Notes under the pieces: generated by a model
Database searches by the model: none
Told to the model about the DNA's origin: nothing
The model's input: the letters and a program-made list of their open reading frames with translations, nothing else
Position numbers and translations under genes: made by a program
NCBI RefSeq assembly: GCF_054482525.1
Contig: NZ_CM137006.1
Length of the DNA: 64,000 bases
Reading direction: 5' to 3' (one strand)
Part shown: positions 9,165-41,024 of the stretch, one piece after another
Layout: each line of letters begins with the position of its first letter
How positions within the stretch are numbered: the first letter of the stretch is position 1

Positions 9165-9260
9165 GCCTGTTGCGCTACGTATCAGGCCTACATTATTTTT
9201 TTAATTCATTGAATTTAATTGGTGTTTATGCCGAATAAGGCGTTAACGCCGCATCCGGCA
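9165..9260. repeat. REP-like palindromic units in the gudD-barA intergenic region
   Basis: gcctgttgcgctacgtatcaggcctac and tgccgaataaggcgttaacgccgcatccggca resemble REP consensus (..GCCTGATGCG.. / ..GCCGGATGCGGCG..). Confidence 0.5.
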
Positions 9261-12147: not shown

Positions 12148-13449
12148 ATGGCGCAATTCTACTCTGCAAAACGACGCACGACGACGCGTCAGATCATAAC
12201 TGTTTCAGTCAACGACCTCGACTCTTTTGGTCAGGGCGTGGCACGACATAACGGCAAAGCGTTATTTATTCCTGGATTACTGCCACAGGAAAACGCGGAA
12301 GTTACTGTTACTGAAGATAAAAAACAGTACGCCCGCGCTAAAGTCGTGCGCCGGTTAAGCGATAGCCCGGAACGCGAAACGCCACGCTGCCCTCATTTTG
12401 GCGTATGCGGTGGCTGTCAGCAACAACACGCCAGCGTGGATTTACAGCAGCGAAGCAAAAGTGCGGCACTCGCCCGATTAATGAAACACGAAGTCTCTGA
12501 AGTGATCGCCGATGTTCCCTGGGGCTATCGCCGTCGCGCGCGTTTAAGTCTGAACTACTTACCGAAAACACAGCAACTTCAGATGGGGTTTCGCAAAGCG
12601 GGCTCCAGTGACATTGTCGACGTTAAACAATGCCCCATTTTAGTGCCCCAACTTGAAGCATTGCTGCCCAAAGTCAGGGCATGCCTGGGCAGCTTACAAG
12701 CTATGCGCCATCTTGGTCATGTTGAACTGGTACAGGCAACCAGCGGCACGCTGATGATTTTGCGCCATACCGCACCGCTAAGTTCGGCAGATCGCGAAAA
12801 ACTGGAACGCTTTTCGCATTCTGAAGGCCTGGATCTGTATCTCGCCCCCGATAGTGAGATACTCGAAACCGTCTCTGGTGAGATGCCCTGGTATGACTCA
12901 AACGGGTTGCGCTTAACTTTTAGCCCGCGCGATTTTATTCAGGTCAATGCGGGTGTGAACCAAAAAATGGTAGCGCGTGCGTTGGAATGGCTGGATGTAC
13001 AACCTGAAGATCGCGTACTGGATCTGTTCTGCGGTATGGGCAACTTTACACTGCCATTGGCGACACAAGCTGCCAGTGTGGTGGGTGTAGAAGGCGTTCC
13101 GGCGCTGGTGGAAAAAGGCCAGCAGAATGCGCGTCTTAATGGCTTACACAATGTGACGTTTTATCACGAAAATCTTGAAGAAGATGTCACAAAGCAGCCG
13201 TGGGCGAAAAACGGCTTCGATAAAGTGTTGCTGGACCCGGCGCGAGCAGGTGCCGCAGGTGTTATGCAGCAAATTATAAAACTGGAACCTATTCGTATAG
13301 TTTATGTATCCTGTAACCCTGCAACGCTGGCTCGGGATAGCGAAGCGTTATTAAAAGCAGGATATACCATTGCGCGACTGGCGATGCTGGATATGTTCCC
13401 ACACACGGGACATCTGGAATCGATGGTACTTTTCTCGCGCGTTAAATAG
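12148..13449 (+). CDS. rlmD: 23S rRNA (uracil1939-C5)-methyltransferase RlmD (RumA)
   Basis: 433-aa ORF with TRAM domain, Fe-S cysteine cluster [11 protein letters not shown] and SAM methyltransferase fold. Confidence 0.93.
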
Positions 13450-13496: not shown

Positions 13497-15731
13497 ATGG
13501 TTGCGGTAAGAAGTGCACATATCAATAAGGCTGGTGAATTTGATCCGGAAAAATGGATCGCAAGTCTGGGTATTACCAGCCAGAAGTCGTGTGAGTGCTT
13601 AGCCGAAACCTGGGCGTATTGTCTGCAACAGACGCAGGGGCATCCGGATGCCAGTCTGTTATTGTGGCGTGGTGTTGAGATGGTGGAGATCCTCTCGACA
13701 TTAAGTATGGACATTGACACGCTGCGGGCGGCGCTGTTGTTCCCTCTGGCCGATGCCAACGTAGTCAGCGAAGATGTGCTGCGTGAGAGCGTCGGTAAGT
13801 CGGTCGTTAACCTTATTCACGGCGTGCGTGATATGGCGGCGATCCGCCAGCTGAAAGCGACGCATACCGATTCTGTTTCCTCCGAACAGGTCGATAACGT
13901 TCGCCGGATGTTATTGGCGATGGTCGATGATTTTCGCTGCGTGGTCATCAAACTGGCAGAGCGTATTGCTCATCTGCGCGAAGTAAAAGATGCGCCGGAA
14001 GATGAACGTGTACTGGCGGCAAAAGAGTGCACCAATATCTACGCGCCGTTGGCGAACCGTCTTGGGATTGGGCAACTGAAATGGGAGCTGGAAGATTACT
14101 GCTTCCGTTATCTCCACCCGACCGAATACAAACGCATCGCAAAACTGCTGCATGAACGCCGTCTCGACCGCGAACACTATATCGAAGAGTTTGTCGGCCA
14201 TCTGCGCGCTGAGATGAAAGCTGAAGGCGTTAAAGCTGAAGTGTATGGTCGACCGAAACACATCTACAGCATCTGGCGCAAAATGCAGAAAAAGAACCTC
14301 GCCTTCGATGAGCTGTTTGATGTGCGTGCGGTACGTATTGTCGCCGAGCGTTTACAGGATTGTTATGCCGCACTGGGGATAGTGCACACTCACTATCGCC
14401 ACCTGCCGGATGAGTTTGACGATTACGTCGCTAACCCGAAACCAAACGGTTATCAGTCTATTCATACCGTGGTTCTGGGACCGGGTGGAAAAACCGTTGA
14501 GATCCAAATCCGCACTAAACAGATGCATGAAGATGCAGAGTTGGGTGTTGCTGCGCACTGGAAATATAAAGAGGGCGCGGCAGCTGGCGGCGCACGTTCG
14601 GGACATGAAGACCGGATTGCCTGGCTGCGTAAACTGATTGCGTGGCAGGAAGAGATGGCTGATTCCGGCGAAATGCTCGACGAAGTACGTAGCCAGGTCT
14701 TTGACGACCGGGTGTACGTCTTTACGCCGAAAGGTGATGTCGTTGATTTGCCTGCGGGATCAACACCGCTGGACTTCGCTTACCACATCCACAGTGATGT
14801 CGGACACCGCTGCATCGGGGCAAAAATTGGCGGGCGCATTGTGCCGTTCACCTACCAGCTGCAGATGGGCGACCAGATTGAAATTATCACCCAGAAACAG
14901 CCGAACCCCAGCCGTGACTGGTTAAACCCAAACCTCGGTTACGTCACAACCAGCCGTGGGCGTTCGAAAATTCACGCCTGGTTCCGTAAACAGGACCGTG
15001 ACAAAAACGTTCTGGCTGGGCGGCAAATCCTTGACGACGAGCTGGAACATCTGGGGATCAGCCTGAAAGAAGCAGAAAAACATCTGCTGCCGCGTTACAA
15101 CTTCAATGATGTCGACGAGTTGCTGGCGGCGATTGGTGGCGGGGATATCCGTCTCAATCAGATGGTGAACTTCCTGCAATCGCAATTTAATAAGCCGAGT
15201 GCCGAAGAGCAGGACGCCGCCGCGCTGAAGCAACTTCAGCAAAAAAGCTACACGCCGCAAAACCGCAGTAAAGATAACGGTCGAGTGGTAGTAGAAGGTG
15301 TCGGTAACCTGATGCACCACATCGCGCGCTGCTGCCAGCCGATCCCTGGAGATGAGATTGTCGGCTTCATTACCCAGGGACGCGGTATTTCAGTACACCG
15401 CGCCGATTGCGAACAACTGGCGGAACTGCGCTCCCATGCGCCAGAACGTATTGTTGATGCGGTATGGGGCGAGAGCTACTCCGCCGGATATTCGCTGGTG
15501 GTCCGCGTGGTGGCTAATGATCGTAGTGGGTTGTTACGTGATATCACGACCATTCTCGCCAATGAGCAAGTGAACGTGCTTGGCGTTGCCAGCCGTAGCG
15601 ATACCAAACAGCAACTGGCGACCATCGACATGACCATTGAGATTTACAACCTGCAAGTGCTGGGCCGCGTGCTGGGTAAACTCAACCAGGTGCCGGATGT
15701 TATCGACGCGCGTCGGTTGCACGGGAGTTAG
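13497..15731 (+). CDS. relA: GTP pyrophosphokinase / (p)ppGpp synthetase I RelA
   Basis: 744-aa ORF MVAVRSAHINKAGEFDPEKWIASLGITSQKSCECLAETWAYCLQQTQG... Confidence 0.95.
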   Translation: MVAVRSAHINKAGEFDPEKWIASLGITSQKSCECLAETWAYCLQQTQGHPDASLLLWRGVEMVEILSTLSMDIDTLRAALLFPLADANVVSEDVLRESVGKSVVNLIHGVRDMAAIRQLKATHTDSVSSEQVDNVRRMLLAMVDDFRCVVIKLAERIAHLREVKDAPEDERVLAAKECTNIYAPLANRLGIGQLKWELEDYCFRYLHPTEYKRIAKLLHERRLDREHYIEEFVGHLRAEMKAEGVKAEVYGRPKHIYSIWRKMQKKNLAFDELFDVRAVRIVAERLQDCYAALGIVHTHYRHLPDEFDDYVANPKPNGYQSIHTVVLGPGGKTVEIQIRTKQMHEDAELGVAAHWKYKEGAAAGGARSGHEDRIAWLRKLIAWQEEMADSGEMLDEVRSQVFDDRVYVFTPKGDVVDLPAGSTPLDFAYHIHSDVGHRCIGAKIGGRIVPFTYQLQMGDQIEIITQKQPNPSRDWLNPNLGYVTTSRGRSKIHAWFRKQDRDKNVLAGRQILDDELEHLGISLKEAEKHLLPRYNFNDVDELLAAIGGGDIRLNQMVNFLQSQFNKPSAEEQDAAALKQLQQKSYTPQNRSKDNGRVVVEGVGNLMHHIARCCQPIPGDEIVGFITQGRGISVHRADCEQLAELRSHAPERIVDAVWGESYSAGYSLVVRVVANDRSGLLRDITTILANEQVNVLGVASRSDTKQQLATIDMTIEIYNLQVLGRVLGKLNQVPDVIDARRLHGS

Positions 15732-15826
15732 TCTTACATAGCTGGATATGGCGTCAGCCGTATCCAGCGATATCTTTTACTCGAAGGTATTACACCTGAC
15801 AGACCCGCAATTTTCAGGACAATTCA

Positions 15827-16618
15827 ATGAATCAAATCGACCGTTTGCTCACTATTATGCAGCGCCTGCGCGATCCGGAAAACGGCTGCCCGTGGGATAA
15901 AGAGCAGACATTTGCCACCATTGCGCCTTACACCCTTGAAGAAACCTACGAAGTGCTGGACGCCATTGCCCGTGAAGATTTTGACGATCTGCGCGGTGAA
16001 CTCGGCGATCTGCTGTTCCAGGTGGTGTTTTACGCACAAATGGCCCAGGAAGAAGGGCGCTTTGACTTTAATGATATTTGCGCCGCGATCAGCGATAAAT
16101 TAGAACGTCGCCATCCGCATGTTTTTGCTGACAGTTCTGCCGAAAACAGTAGTGAAGTGCTTGCCCGTTGGGAGCAAATCAAAACCGAAGAGCGCGCGCA
16201 GAAAGCGCAGCATTCGGTGCTGGACGATATTCCTCGTAGTTTACCGGCTTTAATGCGTGCGCAAAAAATCCAGAAACGTTGCGCCAACGTTGGTTTTGAC
16301 TGGACGACGCTTGGCCCGGTAGTCGATAAAGTCTACGAAGAGATCGATGAGGTGATGTACGAAGCGCGGCAGGCTGTTGTCGACCAGGCTAAACTGGAGG
16401 AGGAAATGGGTGACCTGCTGTTTGCCACAGTCAATCTGGCTCGTCATTTAGGGACAAAAGCGGAAATCGCATTGCAAAAAGCGAACGAAAAATTCGAGCG
16501 TCGTTTTCGCGAAGTGGAGCGTATTGTTGCCGCGCGTGGACTGGAAATGACAGGTGTTGACCCCGAAACAATGGAAGAAGTCTGGCAACAGGTAAAACGG
16601 CAGGAAATTGATCTCTAA
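15827..16618 (+). CDS. mazG: Nucleoside triphosphate pyrophosphohydrolase MazG
   Basis: 263-aa ORF MNQIDRLLTIMQRLRDPENGCPWDKEQTFATIAPYTLEETYEV...; begins only 95 bp after the relA stop. Confidence 0.93.
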   Translation: MNQIDRLLTIMQRLRDPENGCPWDKEQTFATIAPYTLEETYEVLDAIAREDFDDLRGELGDLLFQVVFYAQMAQEEGRFDFNDICAAISDKLERRHPHVFADSSAENSSEVLARWEQIKTEERAQKAQHSVLDDIPRSLPALMRAQKIQKRCANVGFDWTTLGPVVDKVYEEIDEVMYEARQAVVDQAKLEEEMGDLLFATVNLARHLGTKAEIALQKANEKFERRFREVERIVAARGLEMTGVDPETMEEVWQQVKRQEIDL

Positions 16619-16830
16619 GGGAATTACGCGGTCAAGCGCCATTTGTGTCATTTTTTAAATGACAAGCGCTTGATTTGCGTCAAAAACATTTACCCCAAAG
16701 GGGCTATTTTCTCACTCCTGATTTCAATAGTGCGCTGGCGAAGAGGAGGGATAATGAAAGTTTGTGGCACAGGTCATGTTCGGGTATACTGCTTTCCCGT
16801 CCTGGTTATTCCATCGTCTTTTCAACCTAA

Positions 16831-18483
<1,653 letters not shown>

Positions 18484-18554: not shown

Positions 18555-19868
<1,314 letters not shown>

Positions 19869-22104: not shown

Positions 22105-22255
22105 GAGTTCCCCGCGCGAGCGGGGATAAACCGAAAACCACGACCTGGCGATCGGCGTGCTGGATGAGTTTCCCGCGCGAGCGGGGATAAACCGGATAGG
22201 TGTTACACATATGACCAGGCACTGGCGAGTTCCCCGCGTCAGCGGGGATAACCAT
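22105..22255 (+). CRISPR. Short type I-E CRISPR array: 3 repeats (third degenerate), 2 spacers of 32 bp
   Basis: 29-bp repeats gagttccccgcgcgagcggggataaaccg (22105-22133), gagtttcccgcgcgagcggggataaaccg (22166-22194), degenerate gagttccccgcgtcagcggggataaccat (22227-22255); spacers aaaaccacgacctggcgatcggcgtgctggat and gataggtgttacacatatgaccaggcactggc; no cas genes in the window. Confidence 0.85.
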
Positions 22256-37359: not shown

Positions 37360-38094
37360 ATGTCCAAACTCGATCTAAACGCCCTGAACGAACTGCCGAA
37401 GGTAGATCGCATTCTGGCGCTGGCAGAAACTAACGCCGAACTGGAAAAACTGGATGCTGAAGGCCGCGTTGCCTGGGCGCTGGATAATCTGCCCGGTGAA
37501 TATGTACTTTCTTCCAGTTTCGGCATTCAGGCGGCGGTGAGCCTGCATCTGGTGAATCAGATTCACCCGGATATCCCGGTGATCCTGACCGATACGGGTT
37601 ATCTGTTCCCGGAAACCTACCGCTTTATTGACGAGTTAACGGACAAACTCAAGCTCAACCTGAAAGTGTACCGCGCTACCGAAAGCGCCGCCTGGCAGGA
37701 AGCGCGCTACGGCAAACTGTGGGAGCAGGGTGTTGAAGGCATTGAAAAGTACAATGACATCAACAAAGTCGAACCGATGAACCGGGCGCTGAAAGAACTG
37801 AATGCGCAAACGTGGTTTGCTGGCCTGCGCCGCGAACAATCCGGCAGTCGCGCCAATTTACCGGTGCTGGCAATTCAGCGTGGCGTATTTAAAGTGCTGC
37901 CGATTATCGACTGGGATAACCGAACTATTTATCAGTACCTGCAAAAGCATGGCCTGAAATATCACCCATTATGGGACGAAGGATATTTATCGGTGGGCGA
38001 TACCCATACAACCTGTAAATGGGAACCCGGCATGGCGGAAGAAGAAACGCGTTTCTTTGGCTTAAAAAGGGAATGTGGGTTACACGAAGGGTAA
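37360..38094 (+). CDS. cysH: Phosphoadenosine phosphosulfate (PAPS) reductase CysH
   Basis: ORF from [60 protein letters not shown]... (244 aa); the upstream in-frame extension in the track crosses the REP element. Confidence 0.93.
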
Positions 38095-38112
38095 ATATTG
38101 CCGGATAAATTA

Positions 38113-38150
38113 AACGCCTCTGTCAGAAATGATGGGGGCGTTTTTATTTT
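38113..38150 (+). terminator. Weak hairpin plus T-run after cysH
   Basis: aaacgcc...ggcgttttt attttg; short stem with a large loop, so not a strong terminator. Confidence 0.35.
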
Positions 38151-38358
38151 GCGAGCAGCATTCCGGCATTTAAAGGTGAACATCGCAGGGAGAATTAACA
38201 GGTATAGAATGGAGTTGGGTGCTTGAGGCTGTCTGGCGTTAAGCATTCGCGAGGTTCCAGATGGACAAAAGCCCCAGGCGATATTTCTATCAACCTGAGG
38301 CCAGCGTTCGAACCTAAGCAATTCGAATGTTAGTCTCTTCTTTGCAGGGAGGCAAGAC

Positions 38359-38511
38359 ATGCTGACAAAATATGCCCTTGTGGCAATCATCGTACTGTGT
38401 TGTACAGTACTGGGATTCACGCTGATGGTAGGCGACTCGTTGTGTGAGTTGAGTATCAGAGAACGTGGTATGGAGTTTAGGGCAGTTCTCGCTTACGAAT
38501 CGAAGAAGTAG
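38359..38511 (+). CDS. Hok/Gef-family membrane toxin (type I toxin-antitoxin; hokX/sokX-type locus at the cysH-iap position)
   Basis: 50-aa [53 protein letters not shown]: N-terminal TM segment, conserved DSLCE and AYES motifs, closest to HokE as I recall it; putative mRNA 5' end gggtgcttgaggct near 38217. Confidence 0.8.
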
Positions 38512-38532
38512 CCACCACGCGGGGGTAAAACC

Positions 38533-39871
38533 CATAAGCGCTAACTTAAGGGTTGAACCATCTGAAGAATGCGACGCCTCGGTGCCTCGTTAAGACGATG
38601 CCTCGCGTTCTTCAATTGCGTTTTGTAGGCTGTCAGGGATACTGTCCCACGAATGGCCACCTGTAAGCTCCAGATGACCATTTTTGTTATTCTCCACAAC
38701 GAGTTAGTTCTTCTTTTCGGATCCGGCACTTCTGGGGGGGAAATCCAGCGATGGCTGGATTATGTCGTCAATTAAAAATGCGGCGAGTAGATTAGCAAAT
38801 ATCCACGCTTTCGCGAGTTCAGGTTCCTTTGCACGCAAAGCATCCAGGTGCAGCAAACTTTTGAGCCGCTTAAAAGCCAGTTCAATTTGCCATCGCAGAC
38901 GGTAACAATCAGCCACTTGCTCTGCTGAATATTCATCTTCCGGTAATGATGTTAGCAATAGCACATGGCCCGCTGCTTCCAGCGTTTCCGCCTGAACTAC
39001 TCGTCCTTTTCGACGATTCTCGCTGAGCAGTCGGGTTTTACTGATTAATGCTTTTTCGGGAGGAAGTGATACGGCAATGAGACGTGCCGGAAAGGGAGCT
39101 CCGGCTTTTTTATTACCTGAATTGCCTATCATTACAGTGGTTTCACCGTTCTTACCGCAATCCAGCCCGCGCAGAAAACCCATCATGTCAAAGCGCATTC
39201 CTTCTGCAGTTAACCAGCGCAATCCTCGCCAGTGAACCCGGACGATATAATCAGCTTCTCCAAAAGCAAGTGAGCGGATACATTCGGGACGCGAACCGAA
39301 TCCCCGGTCAGCAATGCGTATCTCGTCTGCCGTTTGCGCAAATCGGTCCAGCCGTTCAGCGTCTCTGCTGTCGGTTAGCTCAAAATCAGTGAACTGACAG
39401 GTATGAGGATCATATCCCATATGTAGTCGCCATTCAGCGCTGCCGCCCCCGGGCGCACTGATTGCTGTTCCATCGACAAGACGCAATCTCTTTCCGCTTG
39501 TACAACCCGTAACTGCGGCGCGTACAGCAAGTGTTTGTGCGGCAAGTATGCCAAACCAGTCGGCGGCATTCCGCAGCCGCTTCAGGAGAGCCACGTCAGA
39601 TAATGTTGCAACGTCATGGAGCTGAGCCCATGCAGTGACTTCACGTAATGACATCCCCCCGGGGCCGTAAGCCAGCCCCAGACGTAGCAGAGTTGCAGCA
39701 TCACGAATTTCGCGGCGGCGGGTTAGAGCCCCGGCATTACGTGCCGAAGTATCCAGTTCTTCGGGCTTACCAATATGGGCCAGAATTGCTGACCAGTTAT
39801 CGTGAGAGTAATTCATCGGCACGTTAAATCATATCAGGCGTAATACCACAACCCTTAAGTTAGCGCTTATG
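38533..39871 (-). mobile_element. IS186 (IS4 family) insertion sequence, about 1339 bp, flanked by a 10-bp target-site duplication gggtaaaacc
   Basis: Terminal inverted repeats cataagcgctaacttaagggttg (left) and caacccttaagttagcgcttatg (right); direct repeat gggtaaaacc on both flanks; target is the palindrome cgcgggggtaaaaccccgcg. Confidence 0.9.
38704..39816 (-). CDS. insL: IS186 transposase InsL
   Basis: ORF MNYSHDNWSAILAHIGKPEELDTSARNAGALTRRREIRDAATLLRLGLAYGPGGMSLREV... (370 aa from the MNYSHD start). Confidence 0.9.
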   Translation of the reverse strand: MNYSHDNWSAILAHIGKPEELDTSARNAGALTRRREIRDAATLLRLGLAYGPGGMSLREVTAWAQLHDVATLSDVALLKRLRNAADWFGILAAQTLAVRAAVTGCTSGKRLRLVDGTAISAPGGGSAEWRLHMGYDPHTCQFTDFELTDSRDAERLDRFAQTADEIRIADRGFGSRPECIRSLAFGEADYIVRVHWRGLRWLTAEGMRFDMMGFLRGLDCGKNGETTVMIGNSGNKKAGAPFPARLIAVSLPPEKALISKTRLLSENRRKGRVVQAETLEAAGHVLLLTSLPEDEYSAEQVADCYRLRWQIELAFKRLKSLLHLDALRAKEPELAKAWIFANLLAAFLIDDIIQPSLDFPPRSAGSEKKN

Positions 39872-39986
39872 GGGTAAAACCCCGCGTATTGAATTGTTAA
39901 AGTTTGGCCTCCTGCACCCCTTTTTTATACTCTGTTTCTGGTGGCATTGATTTCCTGCAGGCAAGGGAGTAATCATTTCAAACCCA

Positions 39987-41024
39987 TCAAGACGCCTTCG
40001 CCAGCTCCTTCACCAGCGGTAGCATTATCCGCATAACGTCACGGCAGCGACGTTCTATTCTTCCAGGAAGTGCCTTATCAATATGTTGTTGATTATCCAG
40101 TCTTACGTCATGCCAGCTATTTCCCGCAGGGAATGCAGCTGTTTTTGCGCGTTGCTGATAACCATCCTTATTCCCAAGATTCCAATTTGTTGCTTCTACC
40201 GAAAGTACGGCAATACCGGCTTTGTCGAAAACTTCGGCGTCATTACAACAGCCAGTACCCTTCGGATAATTTTTATTCAAACCCGGATTGATCGTTGCGG
40301 CAATTCCATGACTACGCGCAATTGCCAGTGCCCTGTCGCGCGTTAATTTCCTTACTGCTTCAGGGGTTTTTACACCACTGTTGAAATACAATTTATCGCC
40401 AACAATTAAGTTATCGAGATTAATCACCAGCAGCGTATTTTTCTTTTCGGTGTCACTCATCCGCTTGAGTAAATTCTCAGCACCTAATTTCCCTTCCTCT
40501 TCACCACTGGTCGCCACAAATCGAATACCATACTCGGTAGGCGTATTTTTCAGGCGTTCTGCCAGTTCCAGCATGACACCTAAACCTGCGGCATTATCAT
40601 CCATTCCTTGTAACGTCAGCCCGCCGAGATTGGCATCGGCGTCAGCATCGCTCAGCGGGGCGTAAGTATCCAGATGCGCCATAATGATGATCTGCTGCGG
40701 CGCTTTGCCTTCATGAGCGGCAATCACCGTACTTCCCGTCACGTTATGCCAGCTCTTGCGATTATCGCGGGCGGTATAAATATACCGACTATTAAATGTC
40801 CGAATATCACTGCGATAACCCATTTGCTGAAACTGTTGGCGAATATAATCGGCAGATAACATTTCTGCAGGAGTTCCGGTCATGCGTCCCGGAAAGAAAG
40901 TAGCAATATGTCGTGCCTGGGTATTAGCAAAATCGCCAGGTTTAGGTGACGAGGCGTGTACGGGGAGAATAAAGCATACGCCGAGCGCCAGGGCAGCGGT
41001 ACGGTGGCGCAATGCGGAAAACAT
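39987..41024 (-). CDS. iap: Alkaline phosphatase isozyme conversion aminopeptidase Iap
   Basis: 345-aa ORF MFSALRHRTAALALGVCFILPVHASSPKPGDFANTQARHIATFFPGRMTG... Confidence 0.88.
   Translation of the reverse strand: MFSALRHRTAALALGVCFILPVHASSPKPGDFANTQARHIATFFPGRMTGTPAEMLSADYIRQQFQQMGYRSDIRTFNSRYIYTARDNRKSWHNVTGSTVIAAHEGKAPQQIIIMAHLDTYAPLSDADADANLGGLTLQGMDDNAAGLGVMLELAERLKNTPTEYGIRFVATSGEEEGKLGAENLLKRMSDTEKKNTLLVINLDNLIVGDKLYFNSGVKTPEAVRKLTRDRALAIARSHGIAATINPGLNKNYPKGTGCCNDAEVFDKAGIAVLSVEATNWNLGNKDGYQQRAKTAAFPAGNSWHDVRLDNQQHIDKALPGRIERRCRDVMRIMLPLVKELAKAS

Follow-up and report, generated by a model that had tools for sequence, protein, structure and literature searches.

We find that relA and mazG stand side by side, with no mazEF between them, in the Escherichia coli strain analyzed here. 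The empty junction is probably the ancestral state in Escherichia, and the mazEF module of K-12-type strains would then be an inserted cassette of ~0.69 kb that replaced ~56 bp of the older spacer. We put the probability of this reading, in both its structural and its evolutionary part, at roughly 0.88.

The relA-mazG junction of the window lacks mazEF

All positions refer to the window, by which we mean the whole 64-kb stretch of DNA analyzed. The window is E. coli DNA: the 24-kb stretch around the junction is ~100% identical to the complete genomes of SCU-102, 19KM1776, and PCN033, and among complete genomes just these three match the window at 99% or more over that length. Full-length NCBIfam matches identified rlmD (12148 to 13449) and pyrG (16846 to 18483), and eno (18570 to 19868) was identified via the RefSeq annotation. 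The product of relA (13497 to 15731, plus strand), a GTP diphosphokinase of 744 aa, matched NF008124 over its full length (1 to 744, 1675 bits); the gene ends with a TAG stop codon at 15729 to 15731. mazG (15827 to 16618, plus strand) encodes a nucleoside triphosphate pyrophosphohydrolase of 263 aa (TIGR00444, 415 bits; NF007113) and starts with ATG at 15827. With relA ending at 15731 and mazG starting at 15827, the spacer between them (15732 to 15826, plus strand) is exactly 95 bp, the length given in the original prediction. We regard this spacer as an unoccupied mazEF insertion site.

Does the window encode MazE or MazF at all? A tblastn search of the whole 64 kb with the K-12 proteins returned zero matches at E ≤ 1e-3. 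Hence, neither an ORF for MazE, an AbrB/SpoVT-type antitoxin, nor one for MazF, a PemK-family endoribonuclease, was found in the window by tblastn, and the spacer measures only 95 bp. The spacer had been predicted to lack coding capacity as well as mazEF, and this was borne out: the only ORF of at least 30 aa that starts within it (15748 to 15900, 50 aa) is out of frame with mazG, overlaps mazG, and has no family match. We rejected it as a gene; it starts inside the hairpin described below, and by eye no ribosome-binding site lies upstream. Scanned against Rfam at E ≤ 1, positions 15000 to 17000 matched none of the known RNA families.

Alignment of the junction with mazEF-bearing strains

K-12 does carry mazEF at this junction, as the prediction had stated. 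In the annotation of MG1655 (NC_000913.3), the order is relA, 77 bp, mazE, mazF, 70 bp, mazG, and an antisense RNA, aMEF, is annotated too. Strains 042 and UTI89 carry mazEF between relA and mazG in the same arrangement. When we aligned the junctions, K-12 had mazEF at this place, whereas the window had none.

Aligned with K-12 and 042, the window loses homology right after the relA stop codon and regains it ~35 to 40 bp upstream of the mazG ATG, at CACCTGACAGACCCGCAATTTTCAGGACAATTCAATG. Past the stop codon, the window spacer showed no similarity to the K-12 relA-mazE spacer, and in that alignment the autoregulated mazEF promoter/operator palindrome (ATCTACAATGTAGAT...) had no counterpart in the window spacer. 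By alignment, ~56 bp of the window (roughly 15733 to 15784) correspond to ~0.69 kb in K-12, a stretch that takes in the mazEF promoter/operator, both genes of the module, and some of the mazF-mazG spacer. Evidence for a replaced segment also came from blastn: an 801-bp junction query was 93% covered, and with a separate 161-bp query across the junction, homology in mazEF+ genomes restarts at query position 86, which is window position 15785.

These comparisons delimit two parts of the spacer, both on the plus strand. The first, at 15733 to 15784, is specific to the empty allele; its right edge can be placed no more finely than ~15770 to 15792, because the 20-odd bases to the left of CACCTG are only ~60% alike. 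The second, at 15793 to 15826, is a mazG leader that the alignments show to be common to the empty, the mazEF-occupied, and the Escherichia albertii alleles. The Shine-Dalgarno sequence of mazG (AGGA, 15816 to 15819) lies inside this conserved leader.

Distribution of the empty junction in E. coli

How widespread is the empty junction? We counted a genome as empty when a 161-bp query spanning the junction was covered end to end, which was the case for 1006 (18.5%) of the 5426 complete genomes of E. coli. The 72 bp specific to this allele occur in exactly those 1006 genomes, in one copy each and always at the 3' end of relA. Among the carriers are EC958 and other O25b:H4-ST131 strains, an O15:H18 ST69 strain, ABU 83972, and an APEC O78:H4 strain.

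Chromosomal K-12 mazEF DNA was present in 4419 of the 5426 genomes. The presence of mazEF is indeed strain-variable, as had been predicted, and the two sets are almost exactly complementary, adding up to 5425 of 5426. The junction is disrupted in only about 3 of the 5426 genomes. Hence, at most a handful of empty-junction genomes can carry mazEF elsewhere. From these population counts and the 64-kb window, we infer that the strain studied here probably has no mazEF elsewhere either.

A polymorphism at this site is a common, ordinary strain difference that has already been published (PMC7167474). CFT073 has been reported to be without a classic mazF (PMC7232551). Fraikin et al. (2020, PMC7167474) described relA-mazG as an undisturbed bicistronic operon in many strains without mazEF and judged that toxin-antitoxin (TA) insertion at relA-mazG is probably independent of function. 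UTI89 is cited in that paper as one strain lacking these TA systems; contrary to this example, the RefSeq record of UTI89 (NZ_CP064825.1) has mazE and mazF between relA and mazG. What our analysis adds is modest: the 18.5% frequency, the near-exact complementarity, the polarity of the change as judged by 80 outgroup loci, the recognition of the hairpin as a REP, and the scar in E. albertii.

The empty junction is probably the ancestral state

The absence of mazEF relative to K-12, which the prediction had pointed out, is real. It can be refined, since the outgroup loci and two further Escherichia lineages suggest that the mazEF-free state is ancestral rather than the result of a loss. Our outgroup sample was the mazG locus from 80 species-representative Enterobacterales genomes. 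In the DNA fetched around mazG, a MazE/MazF match was found in 0 of the 80 species, and relA lies 43 to 170 bp from mazG in 62 of the 79 loci that have relA within the fetched DNA. Two diverged Escherichia lineages, L004 and L005, have an identical or near-identical 95-bp spacer (97 to 100%). The relA DNA identity to the window is 96.5% for L005, 92.5% for L004, and 90.7% for E. albertii; L004 is about as diverged as E. albertii. Because the outgroups lack mazEF at mazG, because L004 and L005 share the spacer, and because the window spacer holds no remnants of the module, we take the empty allele to be ancestral.

The relA-mazG spacer of the E. albertii type strain (NBRC 107761; L006:2737-3000) is 264 bp long. 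It contains ~40 bp from the left part of the mazEF operator region, recognized by homology to K-12, as well as a K-12-type mazF-mazG spacer, and a REP/BIME sequence stands where mazE and mazF would be. A mazEF operator half-site is kept only in E. albertii. Judged by these remnants, the E. albertii spacer is the deletion scar of a lost mazEF cassette. Since the scar puts the cassette outside E. coli, its history must include recombination or an old cross-species polymorphism and not one clean insertion.

Perhaps the empty junction of the window arose in the same way, from an ancestor that had mazEF and deleted it, with the REP-like hairpin coming later? E. albertii shows that mazEF loss at this site, with REP/BIME sequence filling the gap, does happen, and within E. 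coli the empty allele turns up in several separate lineages (ST131, ST69, and ABU 83972 among them). However, unlike the E. albertii scar, the window spacer retains neither an operator nor a mazF-mazG spacer remnant; the same 95-bp spacer is found in an Escherichia as diverged as E. albertii (L004); and the hairpin stands where REPs stand in other genera whose sampled genomes have no mazEF at the locus. A derived empty junction is already disfavored by these observations, and we consider it very improbable. An ancestral empty junction is the reading that we carry forward.

A hairpin related to REP elements follows relA

The spacer had been predicted to hold a hairpin with an 8-bp stem and a 12-nt loop. 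The inverted repeat is present as given, with GCTGGATA (15741 to 15748) and TATCCAGC (15761 to 15768) separated by 12 nt, but the fold is a different one: a 12-bp stem with 7 G-C pairs and 1 G-U pair, capped by a GUCA tetraloop, in what appears to be a REP relic. This hairpin (15741 to 15768, plus strand) starts 9 nt past the relA stop and has an energy of -21.9 kcal/mol (z = -6.6 versus shuffles); the whole 95-bp spacer folds at -33.2 kcal/mol (z = -5.1). The K-12 relA-mazE and mazF-mazG spacers have no comparable hairpin (z = -0.5 and -1.1, respectively). A weak second hairpin of 9 pairs, rich in A-U and G-U, can be drawn at 15769 to 15791 (plus strand). L004 has two substitutions in its 3' arm, and by eye these changes break two pairs; we rejected it as a functional element and regard it as probably incidental.

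About 24 to 25 of 28 positions of the main hairpin match the REPs of Citrobacter, Klebsiella, and E. albertii and the REP at 9230 to 9259 of the window, with local alignment scores of 14 to 18 compared to 5.7 ± 1.3 for shuffles. Its placement is that of a Y-type REP, an extragenic imperfect palindrome near the 3' end of a gene, and in Citrobacter, Klebsiella, and Salmonella, the corresponding position after relA is likewise taken by REP or BIME elements. A search with the REP consensus that allowed up to 3 mismatches found only the REP at 9230 to 9259 and not the hairpin. The 5' GTAG tetranucleotide of REPs is the recognition or cleavage site of RAYT. In the hairpin, this head reads ATAG instead (the window has CATAGCTGG and L004 has GTAGCCGG). 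Moreover, the hairpin variant is single-copy in each genome, unlike REPs, which are present in many copies. We conclude from its sequence that the hairpin is probably a degenerate REP element, and because the GTAG head is missing and the variant occurs once per genome, it would be a relic copy.

Is this relic still of any use to the cell? Three features speak for a decaying REP without present function, in a spacer that is neutral: the hairpin has more than 3 mismatches to the REP consensus, it lacks the GTAG head, and this variant is single-copy in every genome. Yet its stem is unchanged in the 4 aligned E. coli empty alleles, and in L004 the pairing is maintained by a compensatory double change (T-A to C-G) together with G-U transitions. 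Furthermore, a hairpin is kept at this site across the order despite unrelated sequences: a stable hairpin lies just after relA in 61 of 62 Enterobacterales spacers (median z = -3.65, with 77% below -2), and these are variously REPs, CCCTCTCCC/GGGAGAGGG stems, and, in more distant genera, hairpin-plus-T-run terminators. We therefore think it unlikely that the hairpin is a functionless remnant.

Possible roles of the hairpin at the relA 3' end

We see roughly even odds that the hairpin acts on the relA transcript, either as a partial intrinsic terminator or as a stabilizer of the mRNA 3' end. The original prediction had suggested that it could serve as the relA terminator, and this suggestion still stands: the hairpin passes a lenient terminator-like scan (at least 5 T in an 8-base window), and the stable hairpins that are nearly universal after relA in the 62 spacers include several canonical terminators. 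Passing the scan is weak evidence, since it found 4 sites in 1.6 kb compared to 1.7 ± 1.4 in shuffles. The G+C-rich stem-loop expected of an intrinsic terminator is there, and it is followed by a U-rich tail, GATATCTTTT (15769 to 15778, plus strand), that forms an imperfect terminator T-tract. The U-tract of this tail (GAUAUCUUUU) satisfies the lenient scan, yet it is interrupted and nowhere exceeds 4 U residues in a row; termination may therefore be weak. REPs have reportedly been linked both to protection of mRNA 3' ends and to transcription attenuation. In the mechanism that we propose, the hairpin would mark and protect the 3' end of relA mRNA and would end part of the transcripts. mazG would be expressed mainly by read-through from the relA promoters and translated via the conserved leader and its AGGA at 15816 to 15819. 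We infer read-through because there is no credible promoter between the hairpin and the mazG ribosome-binding site.

Alternatively, the hairpin might be an efficient intrinsic terminator that insulates relA, leaving mazG independent with a promoter of its own in the last 55 bp of the spacer. The terminator-like scan agrees with this possibility, as do the textbook terminators at the corresponding place in distant genera, and a sigma-70-like match (CTGACA-16-GACAAT) is present at 15796 to 15823. However, the U-tract is interrupted, and relA-mazG has been described as a bicistronic operon in mazEF-less strains (PMC7167474). The promoter match is itself at chance level, with 1 found compared to 1.2 ± 1.2 in shuffles, and only 3 nt separate the end of its -10 element from the ATG; a transcript started there would lack a Shine-Dalgarno sequence and would be no normal mazG mRNA. 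We rejected this match as a mazG promoter, and we doubt that mazG is transcribed independently of relA.

A stronger version of the hairpin's role can also be imagined. REPs within ~15 nt of a stop codon are said to interfere with terminating ribosomes. The hairpin might then be a functional regulator that sets the 3' end or the stability of relA mRNA, possibly hinders terminating ribosomes, and limits read-through into mazG. We hold this to be distinctly improbable. If it were true, carriers of the empty allele (18.5% of E. coli, ST131 and ST69 among them) and the mazEF+ majority, which lost the hairpin, would have systematically different dosages of RelA and MazG, and the set-point of the stringent response would differ as a result, independently of MazF.

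The mazEF cassette and other occupants of the site

With partial termination and read-through as our working view of the ancestral spacer, what would the arrival of mazEF have changed? In K-12-type strains, a self-contained cassette of ~0.69 kb, consisting of the mazEF promoter/operator, mazE, and mazF but no terminator, would have replaced ~56 bp including the hairpin. The replacement would have fused relA, mazEF, and mazG into one read-through unit. The window strain, for its part, either would never have received the cassette or would have regained the original allele by recombination. According to published descriptions, TA cassettes comprise ORFs and their promoter/operator but no terminator (PMC5120126), and mazEFG co-transcription has been reported (PMC6343021). 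The loss of the hairpin and the gain of a promoter without a terminator in the K-12-type cassette fit both descriptions.

Other occupants of the junction have been seen. parDE can occupy the relA-mazG spacer in Salmonella spp. (PMC7167474), and we observed parDE in the relA-mazG spacer of Superficieibacter sp. 1612_C1 (L019:2060-3000; ParD_antitoxin, 1.2e-18; ParE_toxin, 1.3e-11). The spacer of Buttiauxella agrestis (L043:1207-3000) encodes an Hcp protein (T6SS_HCP, 1.9e-20), a DUF4225 protein (9.9e-47), and a 109-aa membrane protein, which are possibly a T6SS effector and immunity set. ORFs for membrane proteins of ~110 aa that by eye resemble the one in B. agrestis lie directly upstream of mazG in Superficieibacter electus (L017) and Klebsiella spallanzanii (L032). 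The K. spallanzanii locus has two further large ORFs, of 493 and 340 aa, and the 3 kb upstream of mazG do not contain relA.

The relA-mazG junction thus takes small selfish or defense cassettes in other genera, and mazEF would be one such insertion into an old hairpin-bearing spacer. The polarity of the change supports the view, already published, that mazEF is linked to relA by accident and not by function. In the window strain, relA and mazG would be a simple ancestral gene pair, and inferences drawn from K-12 about the relA-mazEFG operon, MazF stress responses, and MazF phage defense do not apply to it.

Other features of the window

The window contains an IS186-like insertion sequence of the IS4 family (38534 to 39870, 1337 bp) with a 372-aa transposase gene on the minus strand (38704 to 39822), 39-nt imperfect terminal inverted repeats, and a 12-bp target duplication, GGGGTAAAACCC (38522 to 38533 and 39871 to 39882). 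SCU-102, although otherwise near-identical, lacks this element, which in the window lies immediately 3' of a hok-family toxin gene (38359 to 38511). From cysH to iap (37360 to 41024), the window has only this Hok/Gef-family gene and the insertion sequence, and no cas genes are annotated in the SCU-102 region that matches the cysH-iap interval of the window. K-12 has its type I-E CRISPR-Cas locus between cysH and iap.

A minimal orphan CRISPR array lies between queE and ygcE (22105 to 22194). It consists of two type I-E-like repeats, with 1 and 2 mismatches to the K-12 repeat, and one 32-bp spacer; no cas genes are nearby. The mutS-rpoS interval, a known polymorphic segment of E. coli, holds genes for hydroxyarylic acid decarboxylase subunits B, C, and D and for a MarR-type regulator between ygbN and rpoS (~51.7 to 54.0 kb), as judged from the SCU-102 annotation; these positions are approximate because they are shifted by the insertion sequence.

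Comparison with known systems

How does the junction of the window compare with arrangements already described? The K-12 relA-mazEFG locus shares with it the flanking genes, the relA 3' end, and the last 34 to 40 bp of the mazG leader. The intervals between relA and mazG are otherwise unlike: that of K-12 measures 731 bp and carries the mazEF promoter/operator, mazE, mazF, and aMEF without a stable hairpin after relA, whereas the 95 bp of the window carry a REP-type hairpin and zero TA genes. Sites of the parDE type, in Superficieibacter and, as reported, in Salmonella spp. (PMC7167474), involve the same intergenic position but a different TA family, while the window has no cassette. With the Y-type REP and BIME elements of Enterobacteriaceae, the hairpin has in common that it is an extragenic palindrome just 3' of a gene, alike at most of its 28 positions; it departs from usual REPs in its ATAG head, in a fully paired stem without internal mismatch, and in being a single-copy variant. 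The closest counterparts are the mazEF-less E. coli, namely CFT073, ST131 strains such as EC958, ABU 83972, and ST69. Their 95-bp spacers are 97 to 100% identical to that of the window, and nothing essential differs.
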